Source: a virus (taxonomy: Duplodnaviria; Heunggongvirae; Uroviricota; Caudoviricetes). From it: 64,000 nt of DNA. The stretch lies in IMG/VR virus record IMGVR_UViG_3300026382_000001, one strand, 5' to 3'. Positions 217 to 22,769 of the stretch are shown here, piece after piece. The position numbers and the translations under genes are program-made. Position 1 is the stretch's first letter, and the number at the start of each line of letters is the position of its first letter. Under the pieces are notes generated by a model. That model did not search any database, had not been told where the DNA came from, and saw only the letters and a program-made list of their open reading frames with translations.

Positions 217-847
217 TATAATGGGACTTCCCTTGTTTATAAAATAATTTATTTATGTATTTAATACTTCCACTATTTCTAAAAAATAAATAATAATCGT
301 TATATTTATTATCAGTCTTTGGAAATTTTTTAATTATTTCTTTTTTAATTATTATTTGACCTAATTGAAAATGATCGAATTTTTCTGGAATATTATAATA
401 ATTAAATAGTTCTGTATGTGTTTTATTCCATATTTTTTTAAATGATTTTCTAAAATTTTTTAAAGTACTATTTTCTCTAGCGTTTGGATAATATAATCCA
501 AAACAATAATCATTTTTTAATTCAAAATCAAATGATGTTAATAAAGTATCATCATCTTCTAAATAATAAATATATTCACCATTTGATTTTTTATATAAAA
601 AATTATATACTTGCCCCCAATTAATAAAAGAAGCATTATAAATAGTAATTGGTAATTTATATTTATTAAAATTTATATCCTTAATAGAATCGTCGTCATA
701 ATTAATAATAATTTCATAAGGTATTTGTATATTTGCTTTACGAATACTTAATAAACATTTTTGTAATTGTTCTGGTCTATCATGAGTTGGTATTAATATA
801 CTTAATTTAATATTTTTTGACATTTTAATAATCCGTCGCAGTTGCAA
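206..847 (-). CDS. Glycosyltransferase family 2 (GT-A)
   Basis: LSILIPTHDRP...EIIINYDD...GEYIYYLEDDD (DxD region); true start probably Met at 823. Confidence 0.8.
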   Translation of the reverse strand: MQLRRIIKMSKNIKLSILIPTHDRPEQLQKCLLSIRKANIQIPYEIIINYDDDSIKDINFNKYKLPITIYNASFINWGQVYNFLYKKSNGEYIYYLEDDDTLLTSFDFELKNDYCFGLYYPNARENSTLKNFRKSFKKIWNKTHTELFNYYNIPEKFDHFQLGQIIIKKEIIKKFPKTDNKYNDYYLFFRNSGSIKYINKLFYKQGKSHYNVS

Positions 848-1752: not shown

Positions 1753-2561
1753 GTACTATCCCGAAAAGTTGGGAAAAGTAAATGTTGCATTAAAAAATAA
1801 TAATTTTCATTTTTTAAAAAAAATAAATTATCATAGTCAATTGATATATTTTTTGGGAAAAAAGTGTATTTGCAATTATTTAAATTCTTCTCTATTTTTT
1901 TAGTTATATTCAAACCTTTTAAATAATCAATTTTTCCTAGGTTTTTATTATATGGATCTACATTTATAATTTCAGATTTGTAATTAGTTTTAATTATTGT
2001 ATCTGTTGCAAAAGTTAAATTAGATTCTGGTATTTCGGTTATATATTTAAACATTTCTATAATATCTTCTAACTTAAAAAAATTAAGATCTGATAAAAAA
2101 ATATTTTCAAATAATTTATCGGCATCTGTGGTAAATAATTTTTTAAGTTTTTCTAAATAAATTTTAAAACTGTCGCATTTATTCCATTCAGTTAATATTC
2201 CCAAATTAAATTTTTTTATATCAAATTTTTCACCGGTATAAAATAATAGAAAATATCTAAATTTTCTATTGAGTATCTCAGTAAACAATTCTAAATCAAT
2301 ATAAAAATTATTTTCTTTATCCTTAATTAAATTATATGTATCTATATCAAGTAATTTATAAGCACCATGATAAACAATTCGATTTATTGGTAAGGGTATT
2401 GTAAGACCACCTAATTTATGAATTTCTTCATCCGATAAAGAGGTATCGAGTTTAACAACTAATTCAAAACTATTATCTTTAAATTGATTATTTATTTTAT
2501 CTATAAGATTATTAACCAATTCCCTATTTTTTTTATGTACCTTTCTAATATCTTCGCTCAT
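1746..2561 (-). CDS. Hypothetical protein in radical SAM cluster
   Basis: 271-aa ORF with AAGGA RBS, overlaps the next gene; no motif recognised. Confidence 0.65.
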   Translation of the reverse strand: MSEDIRKVHKKNRELVNNLIDKINNQFKDNSFELVVKLDTSLSDEEIHKLGGLTIPLPINRIVYHGAYKLLDIDTYNLIKDKENNFYIDLELFTEILNRKFRYFLLFYTGEKFDIKKFNLGILTEWNKCDSFKIYLEKLKKLFTTDADKLFENIFLSDLNFFKLEDIIEMFKYITEIPESNLTFATDTIIKTNYKSEIINVDPYNKNLGKIDYLKGLNITKKIEKNLNNCKYTFFPKNISIDYDNLFFLKNENYYFLMQHLLFPTFRDSTC

Positions 2562-2576
2562 ATAATATCCTTTTAT

Positions 2577-3428
2577 TTAAATAAAATCTTGTAAATAGCT
2601 TAATTCATAACCACACGTTTTAAATTCACATAAACTTTTTTTCATTGTATCTTTTAAGTTGTCCCCATTTAATATATTTCCAGTTGGAGCATTCTGAGTT
2701 AAACTATAACTACATTTAAATAAATCTCCATTTCCATTAATAATAATATAATAGGAAGTATCACATAAATAATTATCGGGTACTGTAATTTCCCCAGCAA
2801 AATATTTATTTTTTTCTATTTCTTGTTTTGTTAATTTTATTTTTGATTTAACTAAATTTTCAAAACTATCACTTTGAAAATAGTTATAAGTAATTTCAGT
2901 TCGAATATTTAACAAATTAAAATATTTTCTTAAAAAAATGATATCTTTTATATTATTTTTAATTACCATTAAATCGATATAATTTAATTTAATTAATAAT
3001 TTCTTATTTTTAAAATACTTTAATTTATCTTTATATGTTATAATTTTATTATTTGTAATTTCAAAATGAAAGCTTATATTTAATAAATCAATATAATCCA
3101 AACTACTTATTATAAGATCGGGGTTATCGAAATTAGTCTGTAATTCAATGATACTATTTGAATTTAAATATTTAATATATTTTAAATAGTCTATTAAATA
3201 TTTCGATAATGTTGGTTCACCTCCATGAAAATAAAACAAAGGTGTTCTATTTTTTTCTTTAGCATATGATACACACTGATCTATTATTTTCATAATATCC
3301 TTTTTATTATAATCTATATTTGAATGATAATGACAATATGAACAATCTCTATTGCATAGTTCGGTAATTCTTAAAGAAAATTGTATTACTTTACATCCAG
3401 AAACATCCATTTTTTGTACAGTACCCAT
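2577..3428 (-). CDS. Radical SAM protein
   Basis: CNRDCSYC, FHGGEP, QTN, twitch-like C..GDLFKC..CEFKTC. Confidence 0.93.
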   Translation of the reverse strand: MGTVQKMDVSGCKVIQFSLRITELCNRDCSYCHYHSNIDYNKKDIMKIIDQCVSYAKEKNRTPLFYFHGGEPTLSKYLIDYLKYIKYLNSNSIIELQTNFDNPDLIISSLDYIDLLNISFHFEITNNKIITYKDKLKYFKNKKLLIKLNYIDLMVIKNNIKDIIFLRKYFNLLNIRTEITYNYFQSDSFENLVKSKIKLTKQEIEKNKYFAGEITVPDNYLCDTSYYIIINGNGDLFKCSYSLTQNAPTGNILNGDNLKDTMKKSLCEFKTCGYELSYLQDFI

Positions 3429-4173
3429 TAGTAATCTCCCTATAACAACAGTTATATTTATTTAATTTTGAATCCCAAAGAACATAATCATATGGACATG
3501 GTTTACCATAGGTACTAAACTTTCCGGAACATTGTTCTTCCCAAAGTTCAGATCTGAACTTTGATTCCCCAAGTATATAATTTTCTTCAAATTTTATCCA
3601 AGAATATATTTTTTTATATCTTATGATATTATACTCTTTATTTAAAGCACAACATAAATTTTTATTGTTTTTATAAAATCCAGAAATTGGCAATAAATAA
3701 CATATTTCTGGAAAAATTTTTTGAACTATTCTATAATACCTAATAGATTCTTTTCCAATATACATAATATCTATACGTTTCATATTTAGTATTTTTAAAT
3801 CATTTAACCTTTTTAATTCGATAAGATTATTTATTAAATCGGTTTCTGTTATTTCTGTTGGATGAACACTACACTGTAGGTTAAAGTTATTTATATTATT
3901 TTTAATAATATCGATACTTTTAGTACTAATATTACTTTGAATTACGAATGGTTGTTTTATTTTATTAAGATAATCTATTATAAATTTAATTTTTTTATGC
4001 ATAAATGGTTCTCCACCAAATACAAATAATTCTAAATCTTTGTCAATATTATCCATAAATTTTTTTAAAATATCTTCGTTTAATTCCATTTTATAATTTG
4101 GTAAAGAACAATAAAAACAATTATAATTACATTGACTTATTACTTCCCACTCTTGAAGTTTATTTATTTCCAT
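3391..4173 (-). CDS. Radical SAM protein
   Basis: CNYNCFYC, FGGEP, QSN, SVHP, C-terminal Cys residues. Confidence 0.92.
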   Translation of the reverse strand: MEINKLQEWEVISQCNYNCFYCSLPNYKMELNEDILKKFMDNIDKDLELFVFGGEPFMHKKIKFIIDYLNKIKQPFVIQSNISTKSIDIIKNNINNFNLQCSVHPTEITETDLINNLIELKRLNDLKILNMKRIDIMYIGKESIRYYRIVQKIFPEICYLLPISGFYKNNKNLCCALNKEYNIIRYKKIYSWIKFEENYILGESKFRSELWEEQCSGKFSTYGKPCPYDYVLWDSKLNKYNCCYREITNGYCTKNGCFWM

Positions 4174-4230
4174 ACAAATAATTTCCTTTCATTTATAATT
4201 TGATAAAGTAAAATATATTAATTTTTGGGT

Positions 4231-5079
4231 TTATTTAATTTCATTAAACTTTGAAATATCATGCTCTAACTCATTTAATTTATTTTCTCTACCAGATATT
4301 TTAAAATTTATATAACCAAGTGATTTAGCTTTGGTTATTAATTTATTATCCAAATCCATTCCAGTCTTACATGAAGTTAAACAATTATCTGGATTAAAAT
4401 TTGATAACCAACATTCTTCAACCTCTTTAATTTTTAATACAATATCCTTTGAGTTTAAACCATTCGAATTTACCTTAGATATTTCTTTAAAATGTTCATA
4501 ATAAAATTCACAATTTGGTTTACATGTATCATTTACCATAATTTCATATTTTTCTAAATTTAATTTAAGAAACCAATCTTGAAAAATATGTTCCATTTTT
4601 GGAACAATTAAATCGTACTTAGTCTCTAAATTAGAATAATACTCGAAATATTTTTGCTGCGTTAACGAATTTGGATAAGCTTCCAAATCATGTCCAGTAA
4701 TACTATATTTTAAATTAAAATTATAATTATCTTTTAAAAATAATCGCAACTCTTCGTTTATTAAAGTAATTTCATTTTGTATTTTATATTTTTTAGATGA
4801 TTGATCTAATAATTCTAATAATTCTAAACCAACGTTATCTTTTAAATCTATAACTCCATTTGAAAATGTAAATGAAACAGGTATTTTAAATTTATTATAG
4901 AATTCAATATCGGATAAATCAATATTAATATTTCTATTTATTCTTCCACCATTCCATTTACAATTATTTGGGCCATCATATACTTTAACATTAAATTTTT
5001 TTAATAATTTTAATTTTGTAAAAATTATTAATAATTTTTTTTTATCGAATGTAAAAGCTCCTGCTATATTTAAATTCAT
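4231..5079 (-). CDS. Peptidase-U32-like Fe-S protein (UbiU/UbiV/TrhP superfamily, divergent)
   Basis: WNGGR, EIMVNDTCKPNC..H..C, FKISGR (cf. U32 KIEGR); paralog of 7616..8494. Confidence 0.55.
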   Translation of the reverse strand: MNLNIAGAFTFDKKKLLIIFTKLKLLKKFNVKVYDGPNNCKWNGGRINRNINIDLSDIEFYNKFKIPVSFTFSNGVIDLKDNVGLELLELLDQSSKKYKIQNEITLINEELRLFLKDNYNFNLKYSITGHDLEAYPNSLTQQKYFEYYSNLETKYDLIVPKMEHIFQDWFLKLNLEKYEIMVNDTCKPNCEFYYEHFKEISKVNSNGLNSKDIVLKIKEVEECWLSNFNPDNCLTSCKTGMDLDNKLITKAKSLGYINFKISGRENKLNELEHDISKFNEIK

Positions 5080-6011
5080 ATTTTTTTCCTAGTCGATAAT
5101 CGTTCATTTTTAAAACATCTATCATAATCATTTATATTATCAATAAATATATTATATTTTTCAGAAAATTTAAATTTATTAACAGAATAAAATTTTTTAA
5201 TATAATTATAATTTATAAAATTAGTTTCTATATTAACTTCCATTTTTTTAAATTTTTCTATTTTTGATTTGGGAACTGGTATCCAATCAGGTATTCCATC
5301 TTTAGATAAAACATTAAATATGTAATAATAATCATAATTATATTCTTTTAATATTTTTATTAATATTTCTAATTCTTTATCGGTATAGGTATTAACCATT
5401 AAAAGAAATACAAATTTACCAGGGTTGTTATCCAGTACTGGTTTTAATTCTTTTAATTTTTTAATATAGAAATCTAATGATAATTGTTCCAAATGAAAGG
5501 TAAAATCAATAACATAATTATTAAAATTTGTACTATTTAAAAAATTGAATAATGTATCCAATTTTGAAGCAGATGTACTAAAATTAGAAAATATTTTAAA
5601 TAGAATTTTTTGATTATTAAACATATGTAATTTAGCAGACATATAATTAATAATAATTTCAAATCTATTAATTTTTTCTAAATTATAAAAATATTCCCCA
5701 GATGAAATACTTATAAAAAAACCATCATTATCATATTTAGATTTAGAATACTCTAAAAAAACTTTATCTATTATCTTAAAAAGCTGTTCGTTTGTAAAAG
5801 TACCTTTATTATTTGGTACAGAAAGAAATTTATCAAAACAGTAACTACAATCTAAATTACAAGTTGTATCAAAAGCTAACAATAGTATTTTATAAAATCG
5901 TTTTCCTATTGGTAACGCCAATGTTGTTTTTTTTATAAGATCCTCTTTATTATCCAATATAAAACTCATAGCAATTCCTTTTTTATTTGAGTAAGATAAT
6001 AACATGGACAT
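5076..6011 (-). CDS. Radical SAM protein (no auxiliary Cys motif)
   Basis: CNLDCSYC, SSGE, FSN, FTFH; likely start at 5969 (ATGA overlap, AAAGGA RBS). Confidence 0.85.
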   Translation of the reverse strand: MSMLLSYSNKKGIAMSFILDNKEDLIKKTTLALPIGKRFYKILLLAFDTTCNLDCSYCFDKFLSVPNNKGTFTNEQLFKIIDKVFLEYSKSKYDNDGFFISISSGEYFYNLEKINRFEIIINYMSAKLHMFNNQKILFKIFSNFSTSASKLDTLFNFLNSTNFNNYVIDFTFHLEQLSLDFYIKKLKELKPVLDNNPGKFVFLLMVNTYTDKELEILIKILKEYNYDYYYIFNVLSKDGIPDWIPVPKSKIEKFKKMEVNIETNFINYNYIKKFYSVNKFKFSEKYNIFIDNINDYDRCFKNERLSTRKKI

Positions 6012-6913
6012 GTTATTTCACAATTAACTATAAACATATTTTTCATTTTTATAAGTAAATTATTAAAATTATCATGAATATTTCCAATTTTTGTACCAGT
6101 ACAACCTTGTAAAATATTTAAATTGTAATCAATTAAGAATTCTTTTAAGTAACATTTTTTCTTATTTTTTAATAATATGAAATTATTTATAGAAATTTCT
6201 TTATCATTCATAGTAACACTTGGATTTAATAATTGTATCAATTTACGAAATGGATTTGATTTGGATTTTGAATAGATTTTAGCTCTTTTTTTTAAGAAAT
6301 TTTCATTTCCATTATCTATAACTTCGATATTTATATCAATAACTTTTGATAATTTTTCGATAGTATTAAAATTATTATTATAAAATTCAATATATTCTTT
6401 TTTTAATGTAAGCATTAAATCCATTTTTAAATTAATTTTATAATTATTTATTAAATAATTTAAATTTTTAAAAAATATATTATCATTTAAATCAATTAAT
6501 TCATGTACACTCGCAGTAATAAAAATATTATCTAAAAAATTATTATTTTTACATATTTCAATACCTTTTAATAAATTTGAAATATTTATTAAATTCGTAA
6601 AAATATTCATATTTATTTTATTTTCGATACAAAAATTAACACAATCTAAAAAATATTTACTTAAAGTAGGTTCTCCACCTAATATAAGTAATTGAAGATT
6701 TGGAAATTCTTTTTTAATATGTAATAAAAATATTTTAATATTATTCCAATTTTCTTGAGATAAATTTTTATTCCAATCGTTAGTTTTGTTATAATAATTT
6801 TTCGAATAACAGTATGAACAATCTAAATTACATACTGTAGTTATATCCAAACTGATTAATATATCATATTGAAAAAATTTATCCATTTTTTTATTTGGTT
6901 TAATAATATTCAT
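5966..6913 (-). CDS. Radical SAM protein
   Basis: CNLDCSYC, ILGGEP, FTN, SVH, C-terminal C..C..CEITCPC. Confidence 0.93.
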   Translation of the reverse strand: MNIIKPNKKMDKFFQYDILISLDITTVCNLDCSYCYSKNYYNKTNDWNKNLSQENWNNIKIFLLHIKKEFPNLQLLILGGEPTLSKYFLDCVNFCIENKINMNIFTNLINISNLLKGIEICKNNNFLDNIFITASVHELIDLNDNIFFKNLNYLINNYKINLKMDLMLTLKKEYIEFYNNNFNTIEKLSKVIDINIEVIDNGNENFLKKRAKIYSKSKSNPFRKLIQLLNPSVTMNDKEISINNFILLKNKKKCYLKEFLIDYNLNILQGCTGTKIGNIHDNFNNLLIKMKNMFIVNCEITCPCYYLTQIKKELL

Positions 6914-7619
6914 ATTTTTCCTTTGTATCGAATAATATATTTAATGAACAAAAATCAATATGATTATCTTCAATAAATAATTTAGTATTTGGTTCTTTTA
7001 AAGTACTTGTTACACAGTAATCTTTTCGTGAGGCTCCTATATCAAAATTAATTAATCCCATTGAAAGAATATTGGAATTTAAAATTCTATTTAAAAATAT
7101 TTTTTTTAAATTTGGTAGAGTTTTTTGATAATAATTTGGATCTTCTATATCAGTACATAAATAAATTATAATATCCATATCAGAAAATAATTTAATAACC
7201 AAAGATATAATATTACTATTTTTAATATTAAAAATAATTTGAGTTCTTAATATATATTTTTTGTTAAATAATTCTAAATAATCATCTTTATTTTTTTTTA
7301 ATTTAAAAAATAATTGATTATGTAAACTAAGAACTATTTTTATATTATCAGTAAATAAATATTCATACTCTTTGATTTTTAATAATTTAGTACCATTTGT
7401 ATAAATAATAATATTTTGATTATATTGTTTTATATAATTTATAATTTTTTCAAATTCTGGATGCAAAAATGGTTCTCCACCAAGAATATTAATAACTTCA
7501 TAATCTTTAAAATTTATTTCATGTAATTCTTCTAAACTTATAAAAGAATTTTTTAAACTAACTGTACAATAATCGCACTCAAAATTACATTTTAATGTAA
7601 TAAATAAATCGAGATTCAT
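6900..7619 (-). CDS. Radical SAM protein (short)
   Basis: CNFECDYC, ILGGEPFLHP, YTNG, SLH. Confidence 0.92.
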   Translation of the reverse strand: MNLDLFITLKCNFECDYCTVSLKNSFISLEELHEINFKDYEVINILGGEPFLHPEFEKIINYIKQYNQNIIIYTNGTKLLKIKEYEYLFTDNIKIVLSLHNQLFFKLKKNKDDYLELFNKKYILRTQIIFNIKNSNIISLVIKLFSDMDIIIYLCTDIEDPNYYQKTLPNLKKIFLNRILNSNILSMGLINFDIGASRKDYCVTSTLKEPNTKLFIEDNHIDFCSLNILFDTKEKYEYY

Positions 7620-8494
7620 TGTATCCCCTTTAATTTTAATATTATATCATTTTGTTTTATAAATTGATTATAATTATTTATGGATCGCCCCTCAAATTTA
7701 ATTATATTAAATCGTTTTATAAATATTATTTTATGTTTATCTGGTATAAAAGCTTCCGTAAATTTTTTTGGTACTTTTTCTAATATACATGGCATACAAC
7801 TACTTTCGAATTTTTTTCTATTCGCGACATAATTTAAATTATAATAACTAATTTTATCATAATGATTTTTATATTTATTACAATGATTACAACCTTTAAT
7901 AATATTGATAATTATTTCCGTTTGTTTTAAATAATTATTTTGTACTAAATAATTATAAAACCATTGTTTTATAATTAATTCACTATGTATTACAACATTA
8001 TCATATTTATTAAATAAATTTGTATAATACTTAAAAATCTTTTCTTTGGATATTTTATTATTTTTATAAAATTCTGGAAAGTTTTTATGAGCAGTAATAC
8101 TATAAACGAATGTAAACCATTGTTTACTTTCTGGATATTTTGTAATAATATAATCATATAATATATCGGAATTAATAATTATCTCATTTTTAATATTATA
8201 TTTAATAGACGATATTAATAAATTTTTTAATAATTCATTACCATTTTTATCATTTAAATGTTCCTTCGTCAATAAGGAATTCGTAAACGTTAATCCAATA
8301 CTAATACCAAACTTATTATAAGTATCTATATCCATTTCTGTTATTTGTATTTTTTCATCAAGTATTCTACCACCATTCCAAACACAATTGTTAAAACCAT
8401 TGTATAAAACAATATTATAATATTTTTTTAAAGTTATTAAATGGGTTAAAAATGTTCCATCTTTATAATAAGGTATTACTAATTTTTTCATCAT
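7616..8494 (-). CDS. Peptidase-U32-like Fe-S protein, second paralog
   Basis: NNCVWNGGRI, YSITAH, GCNHC..H..CMPC, KFEGR. Confidence 0.55.
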   Translation of the reverse strand: MMKKLVIPYYKDGTFLTHLITLKKYYNIVLYNGFNNCVWNGGRILDEKIQITEMDIDTYNKFGISIGLTFTNSLLTKEHLNDKNGNELLKNLLISSIKYNIKNEIIINSDILYDYIITKYPESKQWFTFVYSITAHKNFPEFYKNNKISKEKIFKYYTNLFNKYDNVVIHSELIIKQWFYNYLVQNNYLKQTEIIINIIKGCNHCNKYKNHYDKISYYNLNYVANRKKFESSCMPCILEKVPKKFTEAFIPDKHKIIFIKRFNIIKFEGRSINNYNQFIKQNDIILKLKGIQ

Positions 8495-9240
8495 GTTCCT
8501 TTATAAAACGTGTTGTAATTATATTCTTTATTAATAGCATCTCCTATTGGACATATATCTATATCGCAAGAATATTTTTTATTTAAATATTTATTTAAAT
8601 TTATAATTTTTATTTCTGTTTTTTCAATACCACATGCAACATATAATAAACCAGTGCTTAATAAAAAAATAAAAGCATTTGGTGTACAAACATTAGAGGT
8701 ATTAAATATATTTAATTGATGATCAATATAATTTGTTAAATTAGCAAGATTATTTTTTAAATATTTAAAAACTGATTGTTCATTATTTGATAAATCTTTT
8801 ATAGTAATACCTAACTTAATATCTAGTTTATTTAAGTTCTTATATAATTTTATAATTTTATTACTTCCTTCGTAAATATCGTTTTTTTCAAAAAATATGT
8901 CTATATATAAATATTCTTTATATATTGAATTATTTAATAAATTATTTAACTTAATTATATCATTAAAATTGTAATCTAATAATATGGAAACATTTACGAT
9001 ATTATACTCTTTCATGTTTAAATTATTTATTAATTTAAGTTGTTGTATATTAGTAACACTTAAAGTTATTTTTATATTATTAGATTTAAATACTTTTAAA
9101 ATATAATACAAATCATTTATATTAATATTATTTAATTCAATATCTAATACAATATTAGGAATATTTTTTATACCATTATAAAGTTTTTTTATATTGTCGA
9201 GTTTACCATCGGTAATAATGTTAATATATGTATACATCAT
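8491..9240 (-). CDS. Degenerate radical-SAM-like protein lacking CX3CX2C
   Basis: C-terminal VCTPNAF..GLLYVAC..CDIDIC parallels NCTPNVF..GDIIFSC..CDENFC of 10179..11051; no N-terminal Cys triad. Confidence 0.55.
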   Translation of the reverse strand: MMYTYINIITDGKLDNIKKLYNGIKNIPNIVLDIELNNININDLYYILKVFKSNNIKITLSVTNIQQLKLINNLNMKEYNIVNVSILLDYNFNDIIKLNNLLNNSIYKEYLYIDIFFEKNDIYEGSNKIIKLYKNLNKLDIKLGITIKDLSNNEQSVFKYLKNNLANLTNYIDHQLNIFNTSNVCTPNAFIFLLSTGLLYVACGIEKTEIKIINLNKYLNKKYSCDIDICPIGDAINKEYNYNTFYKGT

Positions 9241-10169
9241 TAATCTTTTTTAGTTAATAATAATGGGTAATCCAAACAGGAATCGCGTTGGCAAATAATT
9301 TTTTTACCAAAATATTTTAAAAATTTTACTGGGTTTTGTTTTATATTAAAATTATAATTTAAACAATCTGCGGTGAAGGTAAGGTTTTCATCTATATGTC
9401 CATAATTATAAGAACATGTTTTATTTTTATAACTTATATTATCTTTCATTACTTCATTCAATGTAATTTTTTTATTATTATAAAAAAATTCCGGAATATT
9501 TTGATTAAATACTTTTTCTGGTAATTTTAAATAAGATATCTTATTTAAAAAATCTAAGAAATTATTTGATTTAAATTCCTCATTTTTAAATATTATCTGA
9601 GGACTATATATTATATTATTACTAATACAAAAATAATATAGTTCTAAAATAATATTTTTAAAAAAGTATTCTGTTTTTTCAGTTAAATATAACATTGGTG
9701 AAATAATAATATTAAATTTTTTAGATACAATTAGTTCTAATTTATCAAATAAATTCTTTTTATGATTAATATTATTTAAGTATTCTGGATGTAAACTAAG
9801 CCAATGATTAACATTATTATAATTTGGGTGATTTTTATAAAATTCATATGATTGAAAAAAATTAGTACTTATAAATATATCTGAGTTAGGTTTATCTATA
9901 TCGGAAAATTTATCTAAAATATTAAAATATAATTCTTTATTTAATGTTGGTTCTCCGCCAAGCAATCCCAACGTAAAATCAAAAGGATGTTTTTTTAATA
10001 AATTTAATAATATCGTAGAATTTTTTAATAATATTTTATTATCATTTTTTATATTTAAACTATTATCAAATTTTTGAAAACAATATGTACAATTTATATT
10101 ACACATCATTTGTATATCATAATCTAAATATATTCTATTTTCTTGTGAGTATATAGAATTCCAATACAT
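9240..10169 (-). CDS. Radical SAM protein
   Basis: CNINCTYC, LGLLGGEP, STN, SLHPEY, 4-Cys tail; closest in motifs to 802..1752. Confidence 0.93.
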   Translation of the reverse strand: MYWNSIYSQENRIYLDYDIQMMCNINCTYCFQKFDNSLNIKNDNKILLKNSTILLNLLKKHPFDFTLGLLGGEPTLNKELYFNILDKFSDIDKPNSDIFISTNFFQSYEFYKNHPNYNNVNHWLSLHPEYLNNINHKKNLFDKLELIVSKKFNIIISPMLYLTEKTEYFFKNIILELYYFCISNNIIYSPQIIFKNEEFKSNNFLDFLNKISYLKLPEKVFNQNIPEFFYNNKKITLNEVMKDNISYKNKTCSYNYGHIDENLTFTADCLNYNFNIKQNPVKFLKYFGKKIICQRDSCLDYPLLLTKKD

Positions 10170-10178
10170 ATATTTCCT

Positions 10179-11051
10179 TTATAATAAATATTTATTCACG
10201 TTTGTTTTATCCCCATCGTAACTAGTACAAAAATTTTCATCACATATTACTTTTTTATTTACTGGTATATCGTGATTTTTAATATTTAAATTCTGTTTTA
10301 AATTATAAGAACATGAAAATATTATATCACCATTAATATTAATATCAAAAACATTTGGAGTACAGTTAAATTGTTTTTTATTGTACTTAGCATTTACAGC
10401 ATAATTTTTAGATATATACTTAAACATTTTTTCTTCTGAGATACCGCAGGAAAATATATCAAATAATACATCATTTTTAAATATGGGTATAAATCTATAT
10501 TTTATATCATTTTCATTTAGGAAATCTAAAATTAATTCAATTTTTTCTTTATGTTCTTTGGTTAATACATCATCTATATAAAAATTAATAAACATTTGTA
10601 TATTTTCTTCATTATAAGTTTTTAGATTAAAAAATAAAGAATCGAAATTTTTTAAAAAATTAAAGGGATGTACACTAATATTTAACATAGATTTTTTAAA
10701 TTTTTTTAATAATTTTAAATCCTTATAAATTAATCCATTTGATGTAATTGAAAAAATATCAACTACTCCAAGAATATGTAAATCTAACATATCTTCTATT
10801 TTTTCATTAAGTAATTCTTGACTTAATGTTAGAGGTTCGCCACCCAAGAAATCTATATATAATTCCTTATTTGGATATTTTTTTTTAATCTTCTTTAATC
10901 TATGTTTAAAAAAAGTCCAAACGGATTTAGAAATTAACTTTACAGTATTTAAATAAGATACATAACAATATGGGCAATTTAAATTACAAGTCGTCGTTGG
11001 TTCTATAGATACATAAACTTGTTTATTTTGTATATTCGAGCAACTCATCAT
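10179..11051 (-). CDS. Radical SAM protein
   Basis: CNLNCPYC, FLGGEP, TSNG, SVHP, 4-Cys tail. Confidence 0.93.
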   Translation of the reverse strand: MMSCSNIQNKQVYVSIEPTTTCNLNCPYCYVSYLNTVKLISKSVWTFFKHRLKKIKKKYPNKELYIDFLGGEPLTLSQELLNEKIEDMLDLHILGVVDIFSITSNGLIYKDLKLLKKFKKSMLNISVHPFNFLKNFDSLFFNLKTYNEENIQMFINFYIDDVLTKEHKEKIELILDFLNENDIKYRFIPIFKNDVLFDIFSCGISEEKMFKYISKNYAVNAKYNKKQFNCTPNVFDININGDIIFSCSYNLKQNLNIKNHDIPVNKKVICDENFCTSYDGDKTNVNKYLL

Positions 11052-11895
11052 TTTCCTTTAATTCTATATTTTCAAAATTATTATTTATATCCCACCAACG
11101 CCAATATAAACCAGTATCTCCATAATCTGGTCCACAATATTCTTCGAAATTAAAATCAAACAATATTTTTTTATTATAAAATTTACATTCCGCGATAAAT
11201 CTTGGACTACAATCGAATTGAAATTTGGTTTTCGTATATAAAAAAGAATTAAATTTTTCAAAAATATTTTCAACTGGAGCAGTTAAAACAAAATCTCCAA
11301 AATTATGTTTAGTTCCAGATACGTAAAGAATATTTTCATTATCCGTAATATTATCCAATTTTCTAAGATTTGTATTAATATATATTAATGTTTTGTTTTG
11401 TACTGAATTTCTAATGGTTTTAAAATATTTAAAATTTATTTTTTTAACGTAATTTATACAATTATTAAAATTATCGTAATCTTTATATATTCTTTTATCT
11501 TGTAATAAATATACCTTATCATTTTTTAAAATTTTTGAATAATCTGTGATTTTATTACATCTTAATAAAATCAATTTTTCAAATAATAAAACATATTTAT
11601 CCCAGTAATAATCATATAAACCATCTGTAAATATTAAAATATCACCTTTTATAATTTTTCTTTTAAAATTAAAAATAATATCTTTTTTATAATCATTTGG
11701 TAATATGTACTTATCTTCCCAAGCTTTATAAAAAATATTTTTAGGTGAGTTTTCTTGTATTAAAATATTTACCGAATATCCCAATTCATGAAATAATAAA
11801 TAATAATCCATTACCTCAAAGGTATGACCACATATTCTATTTCTTTCAAATTGGCTTGGACAATAAGTAAGAACTATTTTTTTACCAAAATTCAT
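11023..11895 (-). CDS. Putative GT-B-fold glycosyltransferase-like protein
   Basis: N-terminal ICGH loop; C-terminal FDCSPRFIAECKFYNKKI resembles the GT-B D/E-x7-E nucleotide-sugar helix. Confidence 0.4.
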   Translation of the reverse strand: MNFGKKIVLTYCPSQFERNRICGHTFEVMDYYLLFHELGYSVNILIQENSPKNIFYKAWEDKYILPNDYKKDIIFNFKRKIIKGDILIFTDGLYDYYWDKYVLLFEKLILLRCNKITDYSKILKNDKVYLLQDKRIYKDYDNFNNCINYVKKINFKYFKTIRNSVQNKTLIYINTNLRKLDNITDNENILYVSGTKHNFGDFVLTAPVENIFEKFNSFLYTKTKFQFDCSPRFIAECKFYNKKILFDFNFEEYCGPDYGDTGLYWRWWDINNNFENIELKENDELLEYTK

Positions 11896-11909
11896 TTTTT
11901 CCCTTTTAA

Positions 11910-12791
11910 TTATTTTTTTAAATTAATAAATCCAACTATATTTCTTAAGTCTGGAAAACATGGACATTCATTTAAAGTACATACTTTACTTTTTAAAATA
12001 CTTTTAAGACCTTTTTTAAAAAATATATCAAATGTAATACTAGTATTATTGCATTCATTTGTGATACCTTCTGGTCGTATACAAATATAATTCGCGTGGC
12101 AAAAAACTTTTTTAGGACTAATTTTATGTTTATTAAAATTAGTCCCATAAATAGATTCACTAATATTTTCAACCAAATCGGAATGAATTATATCAAACTG
12201 TATTTCGGGAATTAACGAAACAAGATAATTCTCATTATTTTTATTTATTTTAGAATAATTTTTATCTAGACTTTGTAAAAAATCGATATTGAATATATAA
12301 TTATTCTCTTTAAGGTACTGAAGCTTTATAGCAAAATTATCCAAACTTTTATTATTTCTTACAGCATTATTATGAATAGTAAATAAACTCCAAAATTCAT
12401 TAAAGTCTTGAAACTTTTTATAAAAGTATTCGTATTGTTTAATACTTCCAGTTAAATTAGATAAAAATTCTATTTTAACGCTTTCTTTTCTGTATGAAAA
12501 TACTTCAAATATATTATCTAAATACTTATAGTAATCTTTGGACTCGGTTAATTCCCCACCAAGTATAGATAACGAAATTATTTTAAAATTCTTTGTATCA
12601 GTATCTAATTTAATTAGGATATCTTTAAATTCATCTGGACTTAACTTAATCGAACTATTTAATTTAGAATATGTAAAACAATATTCACAACCAATACTAC
12701 AATTATAAAAAGGTATTAATTGAACATAAATACCCAAGTTATTATTAAATATTTTTGTATTTAATTCACTGGGTTTATTTTTAGATAACAT
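11910..12791 (-). CDS. Radical SAM protein
   Basis: CSIGCEYC, ILGGE, LSN, TIH, C-terminal C..C..CTLNECPC. Confidence 0.9.
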   Translation of the reverse strand: MLSKNKPSELNTKIFNNNLGIYVQLIPFYNCSIGCEYCFTYSKLNSSIKLSPDEFKDILIKLDTDTKNFKIISLSILGGELTESKDYYKYLDNIFEVFSYRKESVKIEFLSNLTGSIKQYEYFYKKFQDFNEFWSLFTIHNNAVRNNKSLDNFAIKLQYLKENNYIFNIDFLQSLDKNYSKINKNNENYLVSLIPEIQFDIIHSDLVENISESIYGTNFNKHKISPKKVFCHANYICIRPEGITNECNNTSITFDIFFKKGLKSILKSKVCTLNECPCFPDLRNIVGFINLKK

Positions 12792-13636
12792 TAAAATTCC
12801 TTTAGAAAATTTGTAAAGTTAATAGATCTTTTAAATATATTATCTATATAATTGACCTTAGTTCTAAAATTATCTTCTGTTAAATCACTCCAACAATAAG
12901 TATTTAAATTATTTAATTTTTTGAATAATCTATCATATCCATAATAATTTAAAGCTTCTAACATAGCTTTATTATCGTTGGCAATAGCTAAATTATTCAT
13001 AAGTAATAATTTTTTTTTGTAATAAATACATTCTAATAATGTATTTGAAACTGAATCATTATCTTCGTTATTTATTAAATAAGTTTCAAAATTATTAAAA
13101 AAATAATCTTGATCGGTACAAGAATCAAAACCTTCTATATTACCACCAAATACTAGAACATCTCGTTCGGAAATATCGTTATTTTTTAAATAGTTTAAAA
13201 GTACTTTTTTATCTTGGCATTCAGCCCGATTATATATACCATACTTATACTGTTTTGATTGATAGTTAACTATTGATAGTTTACTATCAATAGTTAACTC
13301 GTAAAAATAAGTTGGATAGAATTTCATATTATAATATTTACTGTAATAAAAACCATTTGAAAATATTTTATTATTATTTTTTAAAAATAAATATTTAGTC
13401 TTCTCGAAAAATATATTATCTTTTATTAATTCATGTTTAGATTTAGAATATGTAAATAAAAGATTTTTAAATATTTTAGCATCTGGTTGTCTATAAAAAT
13501 TAATATTGGGCGTTCTTTTGGATGGAGAAATATTCATAATGAATTGGTTATTATAGTTCCGTAAAATTTTGGCAGGAATAGTATTCGAACCTCTTTTACG
13601 AGATCCGAATCTATTTTCTTGAATTAAGTTAATCAT
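12791..13636 (-). CDS. Putative GT-B-fold glycosyltransferase-like protein
   Basis: GIYNR..., DSVSNTLLECIYYKKKL (D-x7-E), similar to the 11023..11895 C-terminus. Confidence 0.35.
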   Translation of the reverse strand: MINLIQENRFGSRKRGSNTIPAKILRNYNNQFIMNISPSKRTPNINFYRQPDAKIFKNLLFTYSKSKHELIKDNIFFEKTKYLFLKNNNKIFSNGFYYSKYYNMKFYPTYFYELTIDSKLSIVNYQSKQYKYGIYNRAECQDKKVLLNYLKNNDISERDVLVFGGNIEGFDSCTDQDYFFNNFETYLINNEDNDSVSNTLLECIYYKKKLLLMNNLAIANDNKAMLEALNYYGYDRLFKKLNNLNTYCWSDLTEDNFRTKVNYIDNIFKRSINFTNFLKEF

Positions 13637-13653
13637 TGTTAATCATTATAATT

Positions 13654-14268
13654 TTATAGAATTTTAGTAGGAATTATTTTTTCAGCTAATACCTCTAATT
13701 CTTCTTCATCAGCATAATCAATATCTTCTTTAGTTTGTATTAATTCGTTATTTAATTCTAAAAATGGTTTGAGTTCATCCTGTATACTTAAATACAATTC
13801 TAATTTTTCGATAGCGCTTTCGTCGTCTAATTCTAAAATTTCAATATATTTATCTTCTTTATTATCTTCAGTAATAAAAATTCCTTTAGCTGCAAAATAA
13901 TTAAATAAAGTAATATAATGAATATATGTTAAAAAGCTAATTTTTTGAATATTTAAGGCCAAATTATTATCCATATAATTATATAATTCTACTTTTTTTA
14001 ATTCTAGTTCTTCTGCTTCTAAAGTAGTGCCTTCGGGTAAATCTTCTTTAAGATATATAAAACTATCTTTAGTAATACTTTTTTTAAAAATATCTTCTTC
14101 TTTAATATATACTTTTCCATATTCATTAACCAAGGCATTGTACATATATTTTGTTGCATCGTCAATCATAGCATAATTTTCGAATAATTCTAAATCTTGA
14201 CCAGAGAATTGCATAATTTCAGAAATTACAAAATTTCCATTTATTTTATTTAGTAAAGCTACTTGCAT
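13654..14268 (-). CDS. Hypothetical acidic protein, directly downstream of the Cys-rich protein
   Basis: 204-aa ORF with AAGGA RBS. Confidence 0.7.
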   Translation of the reverse strand: MQVALLNKINGNFVISEIMQFSGQDLELFENYAMIDDATKYMYNALVNEYGKVYIKEEDIFKKSITKDSFIYLKEDLPEGTTLEAEELELKKVELYNYMDNNLALNIQKISFLTYIHYITLFNYFAAKGIFITEDNKEDKYIEILELDDESAIEKLELYLSIQDELKPFLELNNELIQTKEDIDYADEEELEVLAEKIIPTKIL

Positions 14269-14285
14269 TTATTTTCCTTTAATTT

Positions 14286-14864
14286 TTAATAATTTGCATT
14301 ACAGTTACATGTACATACTGTATTACATTTACATACACTTGGACAAGAGTTATGGTCATTTTGATTACATAATCTAGCAACTGCTTTTAATTTATTTTTT
14401 AATGTTGTCATACTTGCATTATCTATTAAATTACCGCGGGATCTATATGTTACGGAACCAGTTGTTGCAACAACATTATCTGCCCACCATTTCATAGTAT
14501 TATAATGATCATGGTCTACTAATTTACCCGGAGCAACTAAAGATGATATTGCCTCGATATCAGAAATGTTTCTTTCGCTAGCAATACTATGAATAATATC
14601 ATACATATCTTTAAAATGTTTATCATCTATTAATTCATTGTTTGGTGAAGTATGTCCAAATACTGTTTCCAAAGCACTTGCATAATTAGAACTACAAGTA
14701 TCTCTATACGAAGGACATGTACTAGCAACATCAGTATTAGAATTAGGAGGATTATTAGACGAGGTATTTCCATCTCCTCCGGTAGTATAAACTCTGGTAC
14801 CAGATGACCAAACTGTCGTATTAAATCGACAATTAATATTAGTTGTTTTGGTAGTACGAGACAC
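14286..14864 (-). CDS. Protein with Cys-rich C-terminus; candidate radical SAM substrate or virion fibre component
   Basis: GTG start with AAGGAG RBS; ends LCNQNDHNSCPSVCKCNTVCTCNCNANY (7 Cys); three internal repeats NELIDDKHF, GKLVDHDHY, GNLIDNASM. Confidence 0.65.
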   Translation of the reverse strand: MSRTTKTTNINCRFNTTVWSSGTRVYTTGGDGNTSSNNPPNSNTDVASTCPSYRDTCSSNYASALETVFGHTSPNNELIDDKHFKDMYDIIHSIASERNISDIEAISSLVAPGKLVDHDHYNTMKWWADNVVATTGSVTYRSRGNLIDNASMTTLKNKLKAVARLCNQNDHNSCPSVCKCNTVCTCNCNANY

Positions 14865-14875
14865 ATTTTCTCCTT

Positions 14876-16723
14876 TTATTTATTATTTATAATTTTATCA
14901 AATATGTATAAATATTTACTAATTTGATTGTTAATTTCACATGATAATGTTAAACCATGAGAGTACATATCTTTATAAAGATCATTAGTAGTACTAGTGT
15001 CTAAAGATCTATCTGGGGTTATATTTACCATTGGGCATTTAACACATGTAAGTGTTTTACATCCATCGCAATATGAATATTCTTTATCCGAATTAATAAC
15101 CTTTTCCAATTTTTCTTTTGTTTTAAAGAATTTTTGTTGAAAAGTATCTGAAGTTATATCACCGTATTTTAAACTATTTAATTGTTCTTTTTTATATGGA
15201 AATTTAACATTTGTATGTTCTTCTCCAAATTCAGTTCTATGACAATATCTTCCAATACCATCCTGATCAAGACCAAATAATTTACTTCCCGCAGAACATG
15301 TGGTATTATTAGCAGCATAACTCATTTCTCTAAACCATCTGGTAAAAGCTGGTTTGTTATTTATTAATCTATCCATTTCAAATTTTAATAAATATTTAAA
15401 AGTCTCGTCTAATTCGGTAAATAGTTTTTCTTTTGGTTTTGTATTTCCACACTTTTCCTGTTGTCTTAAATTATACATTAATATAGAGGTAGTATCGAAA
15501 GTTGGATAATAAGAAAAGTTATTTGGATTATTATTTTTTTTATTTATATCTTCTTCAAATGTTACATAATCCTGCACTGCGTCTGGAACACTACTAATAG
15601 CCTCCAATGGTAAAGTCGCTTTTAAGGATACCTTAATTCCATTATCTTCATTAAGTAAAGCTCTAATTTCTTTAGTAAGAGATTCTTTAGTTCCATTTTT
15701 TTTAGAATCTTTTCTATAATCATCTTGGATTCTTCCACCATCATAAGATATTTGAACTTTAATCTTATCTCTTGGAAAATCTGGATGGAAGAAACCAATA
15801 GTTCTTTTAGCAGAATAATTATTAGTAATTAAAATAATATATTTTAAATCTAATTCATCTTCTAATAATTTAGTTAATTTGTGAGTTACTTCCTGTGGTA
15901 CTAAAGTTGGTTCTCCACCAAGAATACTAAAAGACATTTTAGAAACAAGTCCTTTTTCTTCTAAAGTTCTGGCAAAATTTTTTATACCTTTGACAATATC
16001 TTCTACATCATCTATCGATAATATTTCGGTAACTTTATCAAGACCTTCATAACAATAAGTACATTTAAAATTACAATTTTTATTTATTTGAAATACTATA
16101 TGAAATGAATCTTCGTCATCATGATTTGTAGGATCTGGAGTATCGTCGTGAAAATAATGTTCTTTTTTTAAGATAATATCTTTTTCATTTAATTTTTTTT
16201 CATCTAGTGTTTTTCTATAGTAATTATTTAAATCGTTATATAAATTTTTTAAATTAATATCATTTTCTATTAATTCTTCGTAATGTCTAGCATATTCCAA
16301 TCTGTTGTGAGCTTCTTGATAAGTTTCCTGATATTTATATTGAATTATAGTAGTACTCAATTCTTTTACAAATTCGCCAATATCATTTATAAAATTACTA
16401 AAATCGTTTCCAGTAACTTCGGAAATATATTTTAAAAGAATTATCATTTCAAATAAATCATCATTTATTAATTTTAAAATTTTAATAGTTTGTTCATTAC
16501 GTTCTGGAGTTTCTTCAAAGTCTTCTAAGGTATCTAATAAAATATCCTTAGTTTTAATATCCGATTGACCTAAAATATTAAAGATATCTAATAAAATATT
16601 TAAATTATCCTCGTTAAATATAAAGGAAATTTCCTTTATATTTAACAATGAATTATTTATTAATTCATTTATTCTCGGTATAGCCTCTTCTGGATTAATA
16701 CTCATTTCTTCAAACTTTTCCAT
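14876..16723 (-). CDS. Radical SAM/SPASM-domain protein (peptide or protein maturase type) with about 200-aa N-terminal extension
   Basis: CNFKCTYC, ILGGEP, ITN, QISYDG; SPASM-like CSAG...DG..RYCHR...CDGC....CVKCP...C. Confidence 0.9.
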   Translation of the reverse strand: MEKFEEMSINPEEAIPRINELINNSLLNIKEISFIFNEDNLNILLDIFNILGQSDIKTKDILLDTLEDFEETPERNEQTIKILKLINDDLFEMIILLKYISEVTGNDFSNFINDIGEFVKELSTTIIQYKYQETYQEAHNRLEYARHYEELIENDINLKNLYNDLNNYYRKTLDEKKLNEKDIILKKEHYFHDDTPDPTNHDDEDSFHIVFQINKNCNFKCTYCYEGLDKVTEILSIDDVEDIVKGIKNFARTLEEKGLVSKMSFSILGGEPTLVPQEVTHKLTKLLEDELDLKYIILITNNYSAKRTIGFFHPDFPRDKIKVQISYDGGRIQDDYRKDSKKNGTKESLTKEIRALLNEDNGIKVSLKATLPLEAISSVPDAVQDYVTFEEDINKKNNNPNNFSYYPTFDTTSILMYNLRQQEKCGNTKPKEKLFTELDETFKYLLKFEMDRLINNKPAFTRWFREMSYAANNTTCSAGSKLFGLDQDGIGRYCHRTEFGEEHTNVKFPYKKEQLNSLKYGDITSDTFQQKFFKTKEKLEKVINSDKEYSYCDGCKTLTCVKCPMVNITPDRSLDTSTTNDLYKDMYSHGLTLSCEINNQISKYLYIFDKIINNK

Positions 16724-16761
16724 TTATTTAATCCTATTCTTTTTAAGTTTTATAAAAATAT

Positions 16762-18798
16762 CTATTTAACTTTACATAGAATTTTAAAATTTTCTAAAGA
16801 ACTTGGGTCGCTATTTTCCAATGCTACTCCAATTAAATCAATGGTATTTTTATAAGTGTATGTTCCTTCAGCAACGTTCGGATTATTATGACTAGGATAT
16901 AAATACATTCCTTTTTTAATAAGTCCTTCGCATTTAACAGGTACTCTACCATTTAAAGCAATATTAACATATTCTTGATTATTTTCGAAAGTGCTATTAA
17001 GTACAAAACCTGGATTAGTCGTTACAATACCACAGTATATATTACCTTTAGCATTCTCAGTAACTTCAAAATCTTCATTATCTTTAGATCTATTAAAATA
17101 TAAAATAGTCCCCGATTCATACATATAATCTTCATGATTTTCTTTTTTATAGTACTCGGCTAAATCGGCATACTTAGCCGTAGTAGCAGTACCTGTAAAA
17201 GTTCCAGCGTCTACTGTAACACCGCTTGCATTATCGAATGTTAGTGTATCTCCATCCCAATACATATTTCCATCATCGGTACTACAAGTAATTCTATTAG
17301 AGTGATGTAAATCTATTTCGGTATTACTATAACTAAGTACATCATTACCATTATATTGTAAAGTATTGGCATAAAATTTCCAAGCACCATCATCTCCCCA
17401 ATCTTCAAGATTAAAAGATTCTACAAATTGTAAACGATTATCCAAATATTTTATATTATCATCAGCATTGAAAACTCTAGCTTTCGCTTCGGCTGCTATA
17501 TTTCCAATTAATGCTAACTGAGCATACAAATCATTTACTCCAACCGCTAATTCATTATCTTTTAAAGTAAATGGTGAAATAATATTTGAATTGATTAAAG
17601 ATCGGAACTTAACAAACATTTCGTTAATTGTATCAGTATAATTTTCAAATCTTCTTTCTATTTGTAAATCTGTTCTAAGCATTAGATATTCACTGAAACC
17701 TTGACTAGATATTTTCTCAGCTTTATCGTACCAATCCACTGTTTTTAGATCTTGAAACATACTTGCTTTATTTTCTAAATCCGAATTAGTCTCTGATTTT
17801 AAAAAATCAGTTATGGTTCCATAGATTACGTCGTACATATCGTATAATGATTTAACAATAACTTTTATTTTATCATCAGTGTATTCGAATACTTGTTTGC
17901 TTTCATCAATACTTTCTTGTAATAAAGCGGTTAATTTATTTATTTGAGTTCTATTTAAATTTAACTGACTACCAATTACAGATACCTTTCTTTTAAGATT
18001 AGAAATATCAAAAGAATATTCATTAATAGTATCGTCATATTTAGTTAATATTTCCGAAATTTTAGTAGCTAATAGTTCGGCTTGAATTTCTAAATTATTT
18101 TTAGTAGGTAAGTTTTGATATTGATCACCTTCTACAAATTTAGCAAAAATACTAAACACAGTACTTTTTTTATTAGTGGCATCTATTAAATTTAAAATTA
18201 TTTCAACTTTATAAACTCTTCTATTTTCTATTAATTCTATATCATCTGGATCTAAAGAATCAAAATCAAAATTAGAATATAAGTTAATACCATTATTATT
18301 TAATCTAATTGTAATATTATCCATACCAGTACTTGGGATAGGATCAATATCGAAATAAGAAGCATTTGTACCAACTATAGTACAAAAGGTATTGTATACT
18401 AAATCTATTTTAGCAGTAAGCATATTTGGATAAAGATTATGTGTATACATATTATGTTCAAAATGATTTAAAACGTAAGGCGCATTGTCGATAATACGCT
18501 GTACTTTAATACTAATATTTTGTGATATGCTGGCATCAGTTTCCATATCAGTTGCTATAATAGTAAAATTAAGTTGTTGAATTTCTTTATTTATATCTTC
18601 TGGATAATCCGTATTAATAGCGTCTTTACCATCACCCGTTAAATAAACTTTATTTTCTTGAACAGAAAAATATTGATTATAACTAGATTCTAGCGAATAA
18701 GAAACCGAATTAACGTCAGTTTCCACTTCAGTTATTAACTGCCCATCTACTAAGTTTTCTTCTATTATATCATAAATTTTTATTTCCGTAAATTCCAT
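16762..18798 (-). CDS. Tail fibre/spike protein with C-terminal autocleaving chaperone (peptidase G2-like) domain
   Basis: Central coiled coil; AKYADLAEYY...GIVTTNPGFVLN...IALNGRVPVKC...IGVALE. Confidence 0.65.
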   Translation of the reverse strand: MEFTEIKIYDIIEENLVDGQLITEVETDVNSVSYSLESSYNQYFSVQENKVYLTGDGKDAINTDYPEDINKEIQQLNFTIIATDMETDASISQNISIKVQRIIDNAPYVLNHFEHNMYTHNLYPNMLTAKIDLVYNTFCTIVGTNASYFDIDPIPSTGMDNITIRLNNNGINLYSNFDFDSLDPDDIELIENRRVYKVEIILNLIDATNKKSTVFSIFAKFVEGDQYQNLPTKNNLEIQAELLATKISEILTKYDDTINEYSFDISNLKRKVSVIGSQLNLNRTQINKLTALLQESIDESKQVFEYTDDKIKVIVKSLYDMYDVIYGTITDFLKSETNSDLENKASMFQDLKTVDWYDKAEKISSQGFSEYLMLRTDLQIERRFENYTDTINEMFVKFRSLINSNIISPFTLKDNELAVGVNDLYAQLALIGNIAAEAKARVFNADDNIKYLDNRLQFVESFNLEDWGDDGAWKFYANTLQYNGNDVLSYSNTEIDLHHSNRITCSTDDGNMYWDGDTLTFDNASGVTVDAGTFTGTATTAKYADLAEYYKKENHEDYMYESGTILYFNRSKDNEDFEVTENAKGNIYCGIVTTNPGFVLNSTFENNQEYVNIALNGRVPVKCEGLIKKGMYLYPSHNNPNVAEGTYTYKNTIDLIGVALENSDPSSLENFKILCKVK

Positions 18799-18806
18799 AT
18801 TAACTC

Positions 18807-19079: not shown

Positions 19080-19096
19080 TTTTTATCCTTTAATTT

Positions 19097-22012: not shown

Positions 22013-22014
22013 AA

Positions 22015-22765: not shown

Positions 22766-22769
22766 AATA

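Follow-up and report, generated by a model that had tools for sequence, protein, structure and literature searches.

A 64,000-nucleotide stretch of DNA from a tailed phage (Caudoviricetes; IMG/VR virus record IMGVR_UViG_3300026382_000001), hereafter called the window, encodes on its minus strand a radical S-adenosylmethionine (SAM) enzyme of 615 amino acids (aa) and, directly downstream, a 192-aa protein that ends in a tail rich in Cys and Asn. Judged by gene neighbourhoods across related phages, the enzyme, which we place in the SPASM subgroup, and the Cys-tailed protein are a strictly co-inherited pair, and the pairing is not by chance. Two independent lines of comparison, a Peptidase_S74 domain carried by relatives and published mass spectrometry of virions, make the 192-aa protein a member of a wider family of fibre-type virion proteins. 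The SPASM enzyme probably modifies the tail of this protein. As the best explanation we lean, if only just, towards a fibre-type virion part with a ladder of cysteines and an adjacent, dedicated maturase that modifies those cysteines, most likely by forming thioethers.

Co-inheritance of the enzyme and the Cys-tailed protein

The genes of interest are arranged head to tail on the minus strand (13654-18798) and encode a 678-aa fibre-like protein, the 615-aa radical SAM/SPASM enzyme, the 192-aa Cys-tailed protein and a 204-aa acidic protein; all four open reading frames (ORFs) lie at the coordinates of Table 1. An earlier note on this DNA, which proposed that a SPASM maturase modifies a virion protein, had this gene order right, and its fibre/spike label for the 678-aa protein is based on the last ~137 residues only, which are 31-34% identical to the annotated tail fibre of Campylobacter phages CP21 and CP220. 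Relatives of the 678-aa protein precede the SPASM gene in many other loci.

Close relatives of the 192-aa protein were examined at 11 loci. All 11 have the SPASM gene immediately upstream of the relative and the acidic gene immediately downstream of it; one of these loci is a contig that starts within the SPASM gene. Homologs that occur apart from the SPASM gene, which the earlier note had listed, if common, as a finding that would speak against its proposal, were not seen among these 11 loci. Short SPASM relatives (360-400 aa, 25-32% identity) are also present in three other phage lineages (loci L018, L019 and L020), where the gene after the SPASM gene encodes a protein whose Cys and Asn alternate in a ladder that closes with Cys-x-Cys-(Asn/His)-Tyr, and a relative of the acidic protein comes next. 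The ladder protein of L019 aligns in register with the 192-aa family over core and tail (hhalign probability 95.7%, E 8.8e-9). The 192-aa protein itself has the layout by which the Cys/Asn-ladder family is defined here, namely a repeat-plus-helix core, an alternating Cys ladder and a Tyr, encoded beside a SPASM relative.

The association was also counted in 29 IMG/VR loci chosen solely by full-length similarity to the SPASM enzyme. A ladder ORF is found on the same strand within 4 kb of the SPASM gene in 21 of them, and the remaining 8 loci end before the expected position; the background is one ladder ORF in the 167-kb record that holds the window. The recurrent gene order is fibre-like protein, radical SAM protein, small helical ORF, SPASM enzyme, ladder protein, acidic protein, 290-aa companion and further radical SAM genes, and a relative of the 204-aa acidic protein follows the ladder protein in nearly all related loci. 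A DNA scan of IMG/VR for the tail motif returned two known relatives and two out-of-frame chance matches. Searches of cultured phages with the 192-aa and 615-aa proteins by tblastn returned nothing, and the link to Campylobacter phages described below emerged only via a distant SPASM relative.

A conserved Cys/Asn tail on a small helical core

The C-terminus of the 192-aa protein reads CPSVCKCNTVCTCNCNANY; no other 25-aa segment encoded by the ORFs of the 167-kb record has as many as six Cys. The close family is small, with only 18 representatives among 1.84 billion clustered proteins; besides the tail, its members have in common three strand-plus-helix repeats and two near-invariant cysteines, Cys12 and Cys57. 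Within the tail, seven Cys, Val177 and the C-terminal Tyr are invariant, and Asn/Asp or Thr/Ser occupy fixed positions in between, so that the conserved non-Cys positions comprise Val177, Asn/Asp181, Thr/Ser185, Asn/Asp/Glu187 and Tyr192. Column identity is 0.70 in the tail, 0.39 in the core and 0.25 in the N-terminus, a variable, probably disordered region rich in Ser, Thr and Asn.

The AlphaFold2 (AF2) model of the protein consists of a four-helix core with unstructured ends, and the tail is predicted to be disordered in the monomer (for confidence, see Table 1). The earlier note had described a Ser/Thr/Asn-rich protein with a Cys tail and three repeats (NELIDDKHF, GKLVDHDHY and GNLIDNASM), a description that the sequence bears out: each repeat corresponds to a short strand and the start of a helix in the model, and all three are kept in relatives. 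The gene begins with GTG, 7 nt after an AAGGAG site, and relatives start the frame with ATG. At window positions 14862-14866 this GTG overlaps by one base an ATG that opens a 78-aa ORF in another frame.

Searches for known relatives of the protein were negative or weak. Foldseek found no match of the model in the PDB, and a shape search of a structure atlas gave weak rows only, one of them a faint similarity in fold to a viral cluster with PF27846 in 23% of its members. Feature searches of the same atlas for the 192-aa and 204-aa proteins gave nothing, Pfam and NCBIfam (including PF27846 and TIGR04114) had no match to the 192-aa protein, and hhalign detected no relation between it and the 204-aa protein. 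One weak match of the family profile, P0022, was rejected as an unrelated repetitive protein.

The 615-aa enzyme resembles peptide and protein maturases

The enzyme carries a CxxxCxxC motif and seven further cysteines (residue numbers in Table 1), and all ten are invariant in relatives down to 25% identity. The motif stands at the start of a partial TIM barrel modelled at residues 205-410, and although PF04055 scores 27.7 bits, just below its cut-off of 29.5, motif and model together identify the protein as a member of the radical SAM superfamily. The seven cysteines are spaced C-x17-C ... C-x2-C-x4-C-x2-C ... C, which we take to be near, although not identical to, the canonical SPASM spacing. 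PF13186 (SPASM) gives no match to the enzyme at E <= 0.1; among relatives it scores 16.6 bits against the L019 enzyme (cut-off 21.5), and the relative P0178 carries the domain. On the basis of the seven-Cys motif and the modelled fold, the enzyme is assigned to the SPASM subgroup, with two predicted auxiliary 4Fe-4S clusters.

The AF2 model of the enzyme (mean pLDDT 67; pLDDT, predicted local distance difference test) begins with a helical extension at the N-terminus, continues with the barrel and ends in a Cys-rich part. The closest solved structures are anSMEcpe, ChlB and CteB, followed by SkfB, SuiB, DesII and others; sequence and profile searches against PDB chains gave nothing significant. 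The nearest NCBIfam families are SPASM maturases of peptides or proteins (TIGR04463, PapB, DynA and QhpD). The top match is TIGR04463, the CrpC family (42.1 bits against a cut-off of 525, thus not a member), next to NF047865, the PapB family of ranthipeptide maturases (40.6 bits against 340, aligned over residues 209-555, also not a member), and TIGR04115 matches weakly (22 bits against 350). Because all these family scores are about one tenth of the curated cut-offs, the enzyme belongs to no named family.

Distant SPASM relatives are devoid of the N-terminal extension and have instead a separate ORF of 72-130 aa just upstream. For example, small acidic Cys-free ORFs (82-116 aa) lie directly before the short SPASM genes at L018:4733-5008, L019:4756-5004 and L020:1015-1365, at the position of the fused extension. 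By hhalign, the extension has no significant similarity to these small upstream ORFs or to the 204-aa protein. As for a RiPP recognition element (RRE; RiPP, ribosomally synthesised and post-translationally modified peptide) supplied by a partner, the 204-aa neighbour matches no family. When the enzyme was modelled in complex with the 192-aa protein, SAM and three 4Fe-4S clusters, the score was 0.00, which speaks neither way.

Relatives of the Cys-tailed protein are fibre-type proteins

Many ladder proteins run on, directly after the terminal Tyr, into a Peptidase_S74 domain (homologues L019, L021-L024, L045 and others). In the L019 protein, the match to this domain reaches 28.6 bits against a cut-off of 22; its first residue is the one that follows the Tyr, and it includes a Ser and a Lys five residues apart. 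In a joint alignment, the terminal Tyr of the 192-aa family is in register with the Tyr that precedes the S74 domain, and one ladder relative ends in Tyr-Ser. Apart from MyRF, the only proteins known to have a Peptidase_S74 domain are spikes, fibres and neck appendages of phages; the domain trimerises the part upstream of it before cleaving itself off (PMC8326128). Self-cleavage after the Tyr would thus give the long ladder forms a mature end that matches the natural end of the short forms.

The second line of evidence comes from cultured phages. Campylobacter phages of the CP220 group encode a full-length SPASM homologue (CP220 gp136), with E about 1e-47 to the L019 enzyme and 22% identity to the 615-aa enzyme over 375 aa. 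A 534-aa ladder protein, gp140, is encoded 2.2 kb upstream of gp136 among genes for fibre attachment and the baseplate. It contains six to seven CTCNCNY-type heptads, previously annotated as a DNA repeat only, and its similarity to the 192-aa family (hhalign probability 83%) takes in the last repeat, the helix and the ladder. The orthologue of gp140 in phage IBB_35 (gene 3-9, 60,318 Da; 60,317 Da as computed here) is among 38 proteins found by tandem mass spectrometry in purified virions, with 2.6% coverage (PMC3322345 Table S2). S74 domains on relatives and a ladder protein in IBB_35 virions bear out, by comparison, the view in the earlier note that the 192-aa protein looks more like a fibre subunit than a short precursor peptide. 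At the level of DNA, the published 'Repetitive region x.1-x.6' of 21-nt repeats in CP220 encodes the Cys/Asn heptads of gp140 (L099:1170-2774), and more Cys-x-Cys-Asn/Asp motifs are scattered up to the end of that protein.

A proposed thioether modification and its alternatives

In the mechanism that we propose, the SPASM enzyme would bind the unfolded tail of the 192-aa protein and, with its radical SAM cluster and two auxiliary clusters, modify the tail cysteines. Most likely, Cys sulfur atoms would be joined as thioethers to carbons of the Asn, Asp or Thr residues conserved next to them, and the tip would thereby be locked into a rigid knot resistant to protease and reduction. The 204-aa acidic protein is probably a partner or assembly helper. 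Thioether chemistry on the tail is suggested by analogy, because it fits the nearest families of the enzyme, the fixed acceptor-like residues of the tail and the action of CrpC, as a precedent, on an entire protein rich in Cys. SPASM enzymes of the QhpD/QhpC, PapB/PapA and NxxcB/NxxcA systems are known to link Cys sulfur to side-chain carbons of Asp, Glu or Asn. CrpC, of the TIGR04463 family, makes thioethers on the 28.8-kDa Cys-rich protein CrpA (PMC13692751).

Several observations weigh against this proposal. The modelled core of the 192-aa protein is a helical bundle and not a typical fibre fold; Peptidase_S74 is absent from the 192-aa protein and from the entire 167-kb record; and the virion evidence concerns a distant relative, detected at a peptide coverage of 2.6%, which has only the last repeat and the ladder in common with the 192-aa protein. 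As for the enzyme, every NCBIfam score is far under the curated cut-off, and an RRE-like fold is not seen in it, the N-terminal ~190 residues being modelled all-helical at low confidence. Furthermore, conservation of the cysteines alone cannot separate thioethers from metal binding, because CxC spacing also suits the latter.

A metal-holding ladder in a trimeric fibre is accordingly the main rival, although it is compatible with enzymatic modification of the same ladder. In its full form it takes the ladder as a structural metal-binding or disulfide zipper on the axis of a trimeric fibre, with the SPASM enzyme acting on another substrate or merely assisting, and we consider this unlikely but deserving of weight. 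An alternating Cys-x-Cys pattern is what metal-thiolate clusters typically show, the monomer model leaves the tail unstructured, and the trimerising S74 domain of relatives follows right after the ladder, so that three ladders would lie side by side. The tip of the T4 long tail fibre, in which iron ions are held by His-x-His motifs, offers a comparison. However, a zipper of this kind leaves unexplained both the co-inheritance of SPASM gene and ladder across otherwise dissimilar phages and the near-invariance of the non-Cys positions of the tail. A different possibility, which we judge improbable, keeps the tail as the substrate of the SPASM enzyme and changes the chemistry: the enzyme might oxidise Cys in the manner of sulfatase maturation, carry out an epimerisation, or form a carbon-carbon or Tyr-centred link of the kind found in the precursors of pyrroloquinoline quinone (PQQ) or mycofactocin. 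The top fold match to the sulfatase maturase anSMEcpe and the invariant C-terminal Tyr are in its favour, whereas the ladder contains no sulfatase-type motif, the Tyr of many relatives precedes an S74 domain and is not the primary C-terminus, and the best sequence-family matches of the enzyme are maturases that form thioethers and cyclophanes.

To two further explanations we give very little credence. Under a classical RiPP scheme, the helical domain would be a long leader and the modified tail would be cut off and released as a small bioactive peptide. A leader and a Cys-rich core beside a SPASM gene recall ranthipeptide and SCIFF clusters, but the entire protein is conserved, with the presumed core better conserved than the presumed leader; Pfam, PHROG and NCBIfam recognise no protease or exporter among the conserved core genes; and the relatives are of fibre type, one of them having been detected in virions. 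It is about as far-fetched that the Cys-tailed protein serves as an iron-sulfur or electron-transfer helper for the many radical SAM enzymes of the phage. The record has 12 radical SAM matches, and marine phages rich in radical SAM genes also carry genes for iron-sulfur assembly (PMC5332604); however, small radical SAM arrays occur without the Cys-tailed protein, which tracks the SPASM gene only, and its relatives bear a fibre chaperone domain.

Comparison with known systems

The closest analogue of the proposed maturase and its substrate is CrpC/CrpA of Methanococcus voltae, in which a SPASM enzyme is likewise encoded beside a whole protein with a C-terminal Cys-rich region and ranthionine links have been shown (PMC13692751). 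It differs in that CrpC has an RRE, which is not seen in the 615-aa enzyme, and in that CrpA consists of ten 17-residue repeats and is a cellular protein with a possible metal-related role. The models of QhpD and PapB are among the best matches of the 615-aa enzyme; nevertheless, the QhpD, PapB and NxxcB systems have unrelated substrates with CxxxD or NxxC motifs in place of an alternating ladder that ends in Tyr, and no phage or virion context. The best structural match, anSMEcpe (PDB 4K36-4K39; E 2e-7, TM score 0.64-0.66 by target), also modifies a Cys or Ser of a whole protein, but it is only ~18% identical to the 615-aa enzyme, has no N-terminal extension and performs formylglycine chemistry on another target motif.

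On the side of the substrate, relatives of the 192-aa protein resemble S74 fibres and spikes such as endosialidase and the T5 L-shaped fibre (PMC8326128) in carrying S74 after the Tyr with the spacing of the Ser-Lys dyad. Those described have no Cys ladder and no radical SAM partner, and the 192-aa protein ends at the Tyr without S74. Phages CP220 and IBB_35 have both a homologous SPASM enzyme (gp136; gene 3-5) and a heptad ladder protein (gp140; gene 3-9) in the fibre/baseplate region, with the ladder gene upstream of the enzyme gene, in contrast to its place directly downstream here. The papers on these two phages list the ladder protein as hypothetical or as a DNA repeat and draw no link to the enzyme. 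The CXXX-repeat systems (TIGR04114/TIGR04115, PF27846) also place Cys-repeat proteins beside radical SAM maturases, including in phage contigs, but their Cys recur at every fourth residue, and the 192-aa protein matches no PF27846. A second class of phage Cys-repeat proteins, with Cys at about every fourth residue, was observed at IMG/VR loci L059-L062, L067, L088, L093 and L094; the adjacent radical SAM genes match the enzyme in its N-terminal part only.

To our knowledge, radical SAM thioether chemistry is confined to small antibiotic-like peptides and a few cellular proteins and has not been described in virus particles. A literature search on radical SAM modification of phage fibres or structural proteins found no paper describing it. 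If the proposal is true, modification of the tail would add a post-translational step of a new kind to virion assembly; expressing or engineering such fibres would then need the enzyme and a supply of iron-sulfur clusters. Maturation of phage fibre parts in this way would also explain the radical SAM genes long noted in Campylobacter and marine phages. CP220 and IBB_35 provide a testable system in cultured phages. More tentatively, and with chances that we put somewhat below even, dedicated radical SAM/SPASM enzymes of many tailed phages, including the cultured Campylobacter phages, may covalently cross-link a Cys/Asn ladder at the end of a virion fibre protein; such a ladder would be the first thioether knot known to be made by an enzyme in a virus particle. 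The fast-changing sets of nearby radical SAM genes might diversify this or a linked modification in host-range arms races.

Genomic context and the downstream radical SAM array

The 167-kb record has an estimated completeness of 59% and a G+C content of ~25%, and a near-identical 281-kb contig exists. A structural protein upstream resembles virion proteins of jumbo phages, for example Yersinia phiR1-37 and Ralstonia RP12/RP31. Past the 204-aa acidic gene, the tight packing continues with a 281-aa protein and then with small radical SAM paralogs mixed with other genes (Table 1). The gaps between the minus-strand genes of the cluster are short and have no terminator-like site on the minus strand. 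At window positions 22744-22765, a hairpin with a 9-bp stem, the sole strong terminator-like one in 8000-26000, lies between genes for a 748-aa and a 220-aa protein, upstream of the fibre and SPASM genes.

Table 1. Coordinates of the fibre-SPASM-ladder cluster and its neighbours in the window.
Feature	Position	Strand	Basis or remark
678-aa fibre-like protein	16762..18798	-	C-terminal ~137 residues resemble annotated Campylobacter phage tail fibre proteins
615-aa radical SAM/SPASM enzyme, proposed maturase	14876..16723	-	PF04055, NCBIfam ranking, fold matches
N-terminal ~200-residue extension of the enzyme	16124..16723	-	acidic, predicted all-helical, poorly conserved
Radical SAM cluster motif CxxxCxxC (C217, C221, C224)	16052..16075	-	invariant Cys
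SPASM-type region with seven invariant Cys (476, 494, 552, 555, 560, 563, 595)	14939..15298	-	
192-aa Cys-tailed protein, proposed substrate	14286..14864	-	
Helical core, residues ~55-168, three strand-plus-helix repeats	14361..14702	-	AF2 pLDDT 70-84
Cys/Asn tail, residues 166-192, invariant C-terminal Tyr	14289..14369	-	conservation; predicted disordered (AF2)
204-aa acidic protein	13654..14268	-	isoelectric point 4.24; phrog_25260 (PHROG entry without function)
281-aa conserved companion	12791..13636	-	weak profile similarity to the 290-aa family
290-aa conserved companion	11023..11895	-	family widespread in phages, adjoins small radical SAM genes
Array of nine small radical SAM/twitch-like paralogs, unknown genes and GT2	206..12791	-	neighbouring, separable, hypervariable module

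The earlier note had further supposed that the enzymes encoded downstream decorate the tail once it is cross-linked, a view to which the comparison of related phages lends no support. The nine small paralogs have a four-Cys twitch-like C-terminal motif. Within the close clade, the acidic, 281-aa and 290-aa proteins are 40-60% identical, and the small radical SAM genes of the same phages are at most ~30% identical, vary in number and are non-orthologous. The 290-aa family, together with small radical SAM and sugar-pathway genes, is also present in phages whose examined stretch contains no SPASM/ladder pair, and in CP220 it is found at a site separate from the pair. The array is therefore regarded as a neighbouring but separable module, because it is hypervariable between phages and similar arrays occur without the pair. 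Such arrays were described in 2010 as an 'interchangeable module' in CP220/CPt10, phages that have 11-12 radical SAM genes (PMC2853527), and a report of 2017 describes 12 radical SAM genes in one marine phage (PMC5332604).

The 290-aa family comprises more than 100 clusters; its members always have a small radical SAM gene as neighbour, and the one in L010 (7742-9532) is joined to a radical SAM domain in a single protein. Profiles of the 281-aa and 290-aa families detect no solved relative and match each other weakly around one acidic motif (hhalign E 0.0034); both proteins, which may carry a glycosyltransferase-like motif, are suspected to be transferases. Two array proteins (window 4231-5079 and 7616-8494) are paralogous, contain Cys and have no Pfam, NCBIfam or PHROG match. 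In addition, a 249-aa paralog in the array (window 8491-9240, minus strand) is devoid of CxxxCxxC but retains the four C-terminal Cys (185, 203, 225 and 230), and is possibly an inactive or accessory copy.

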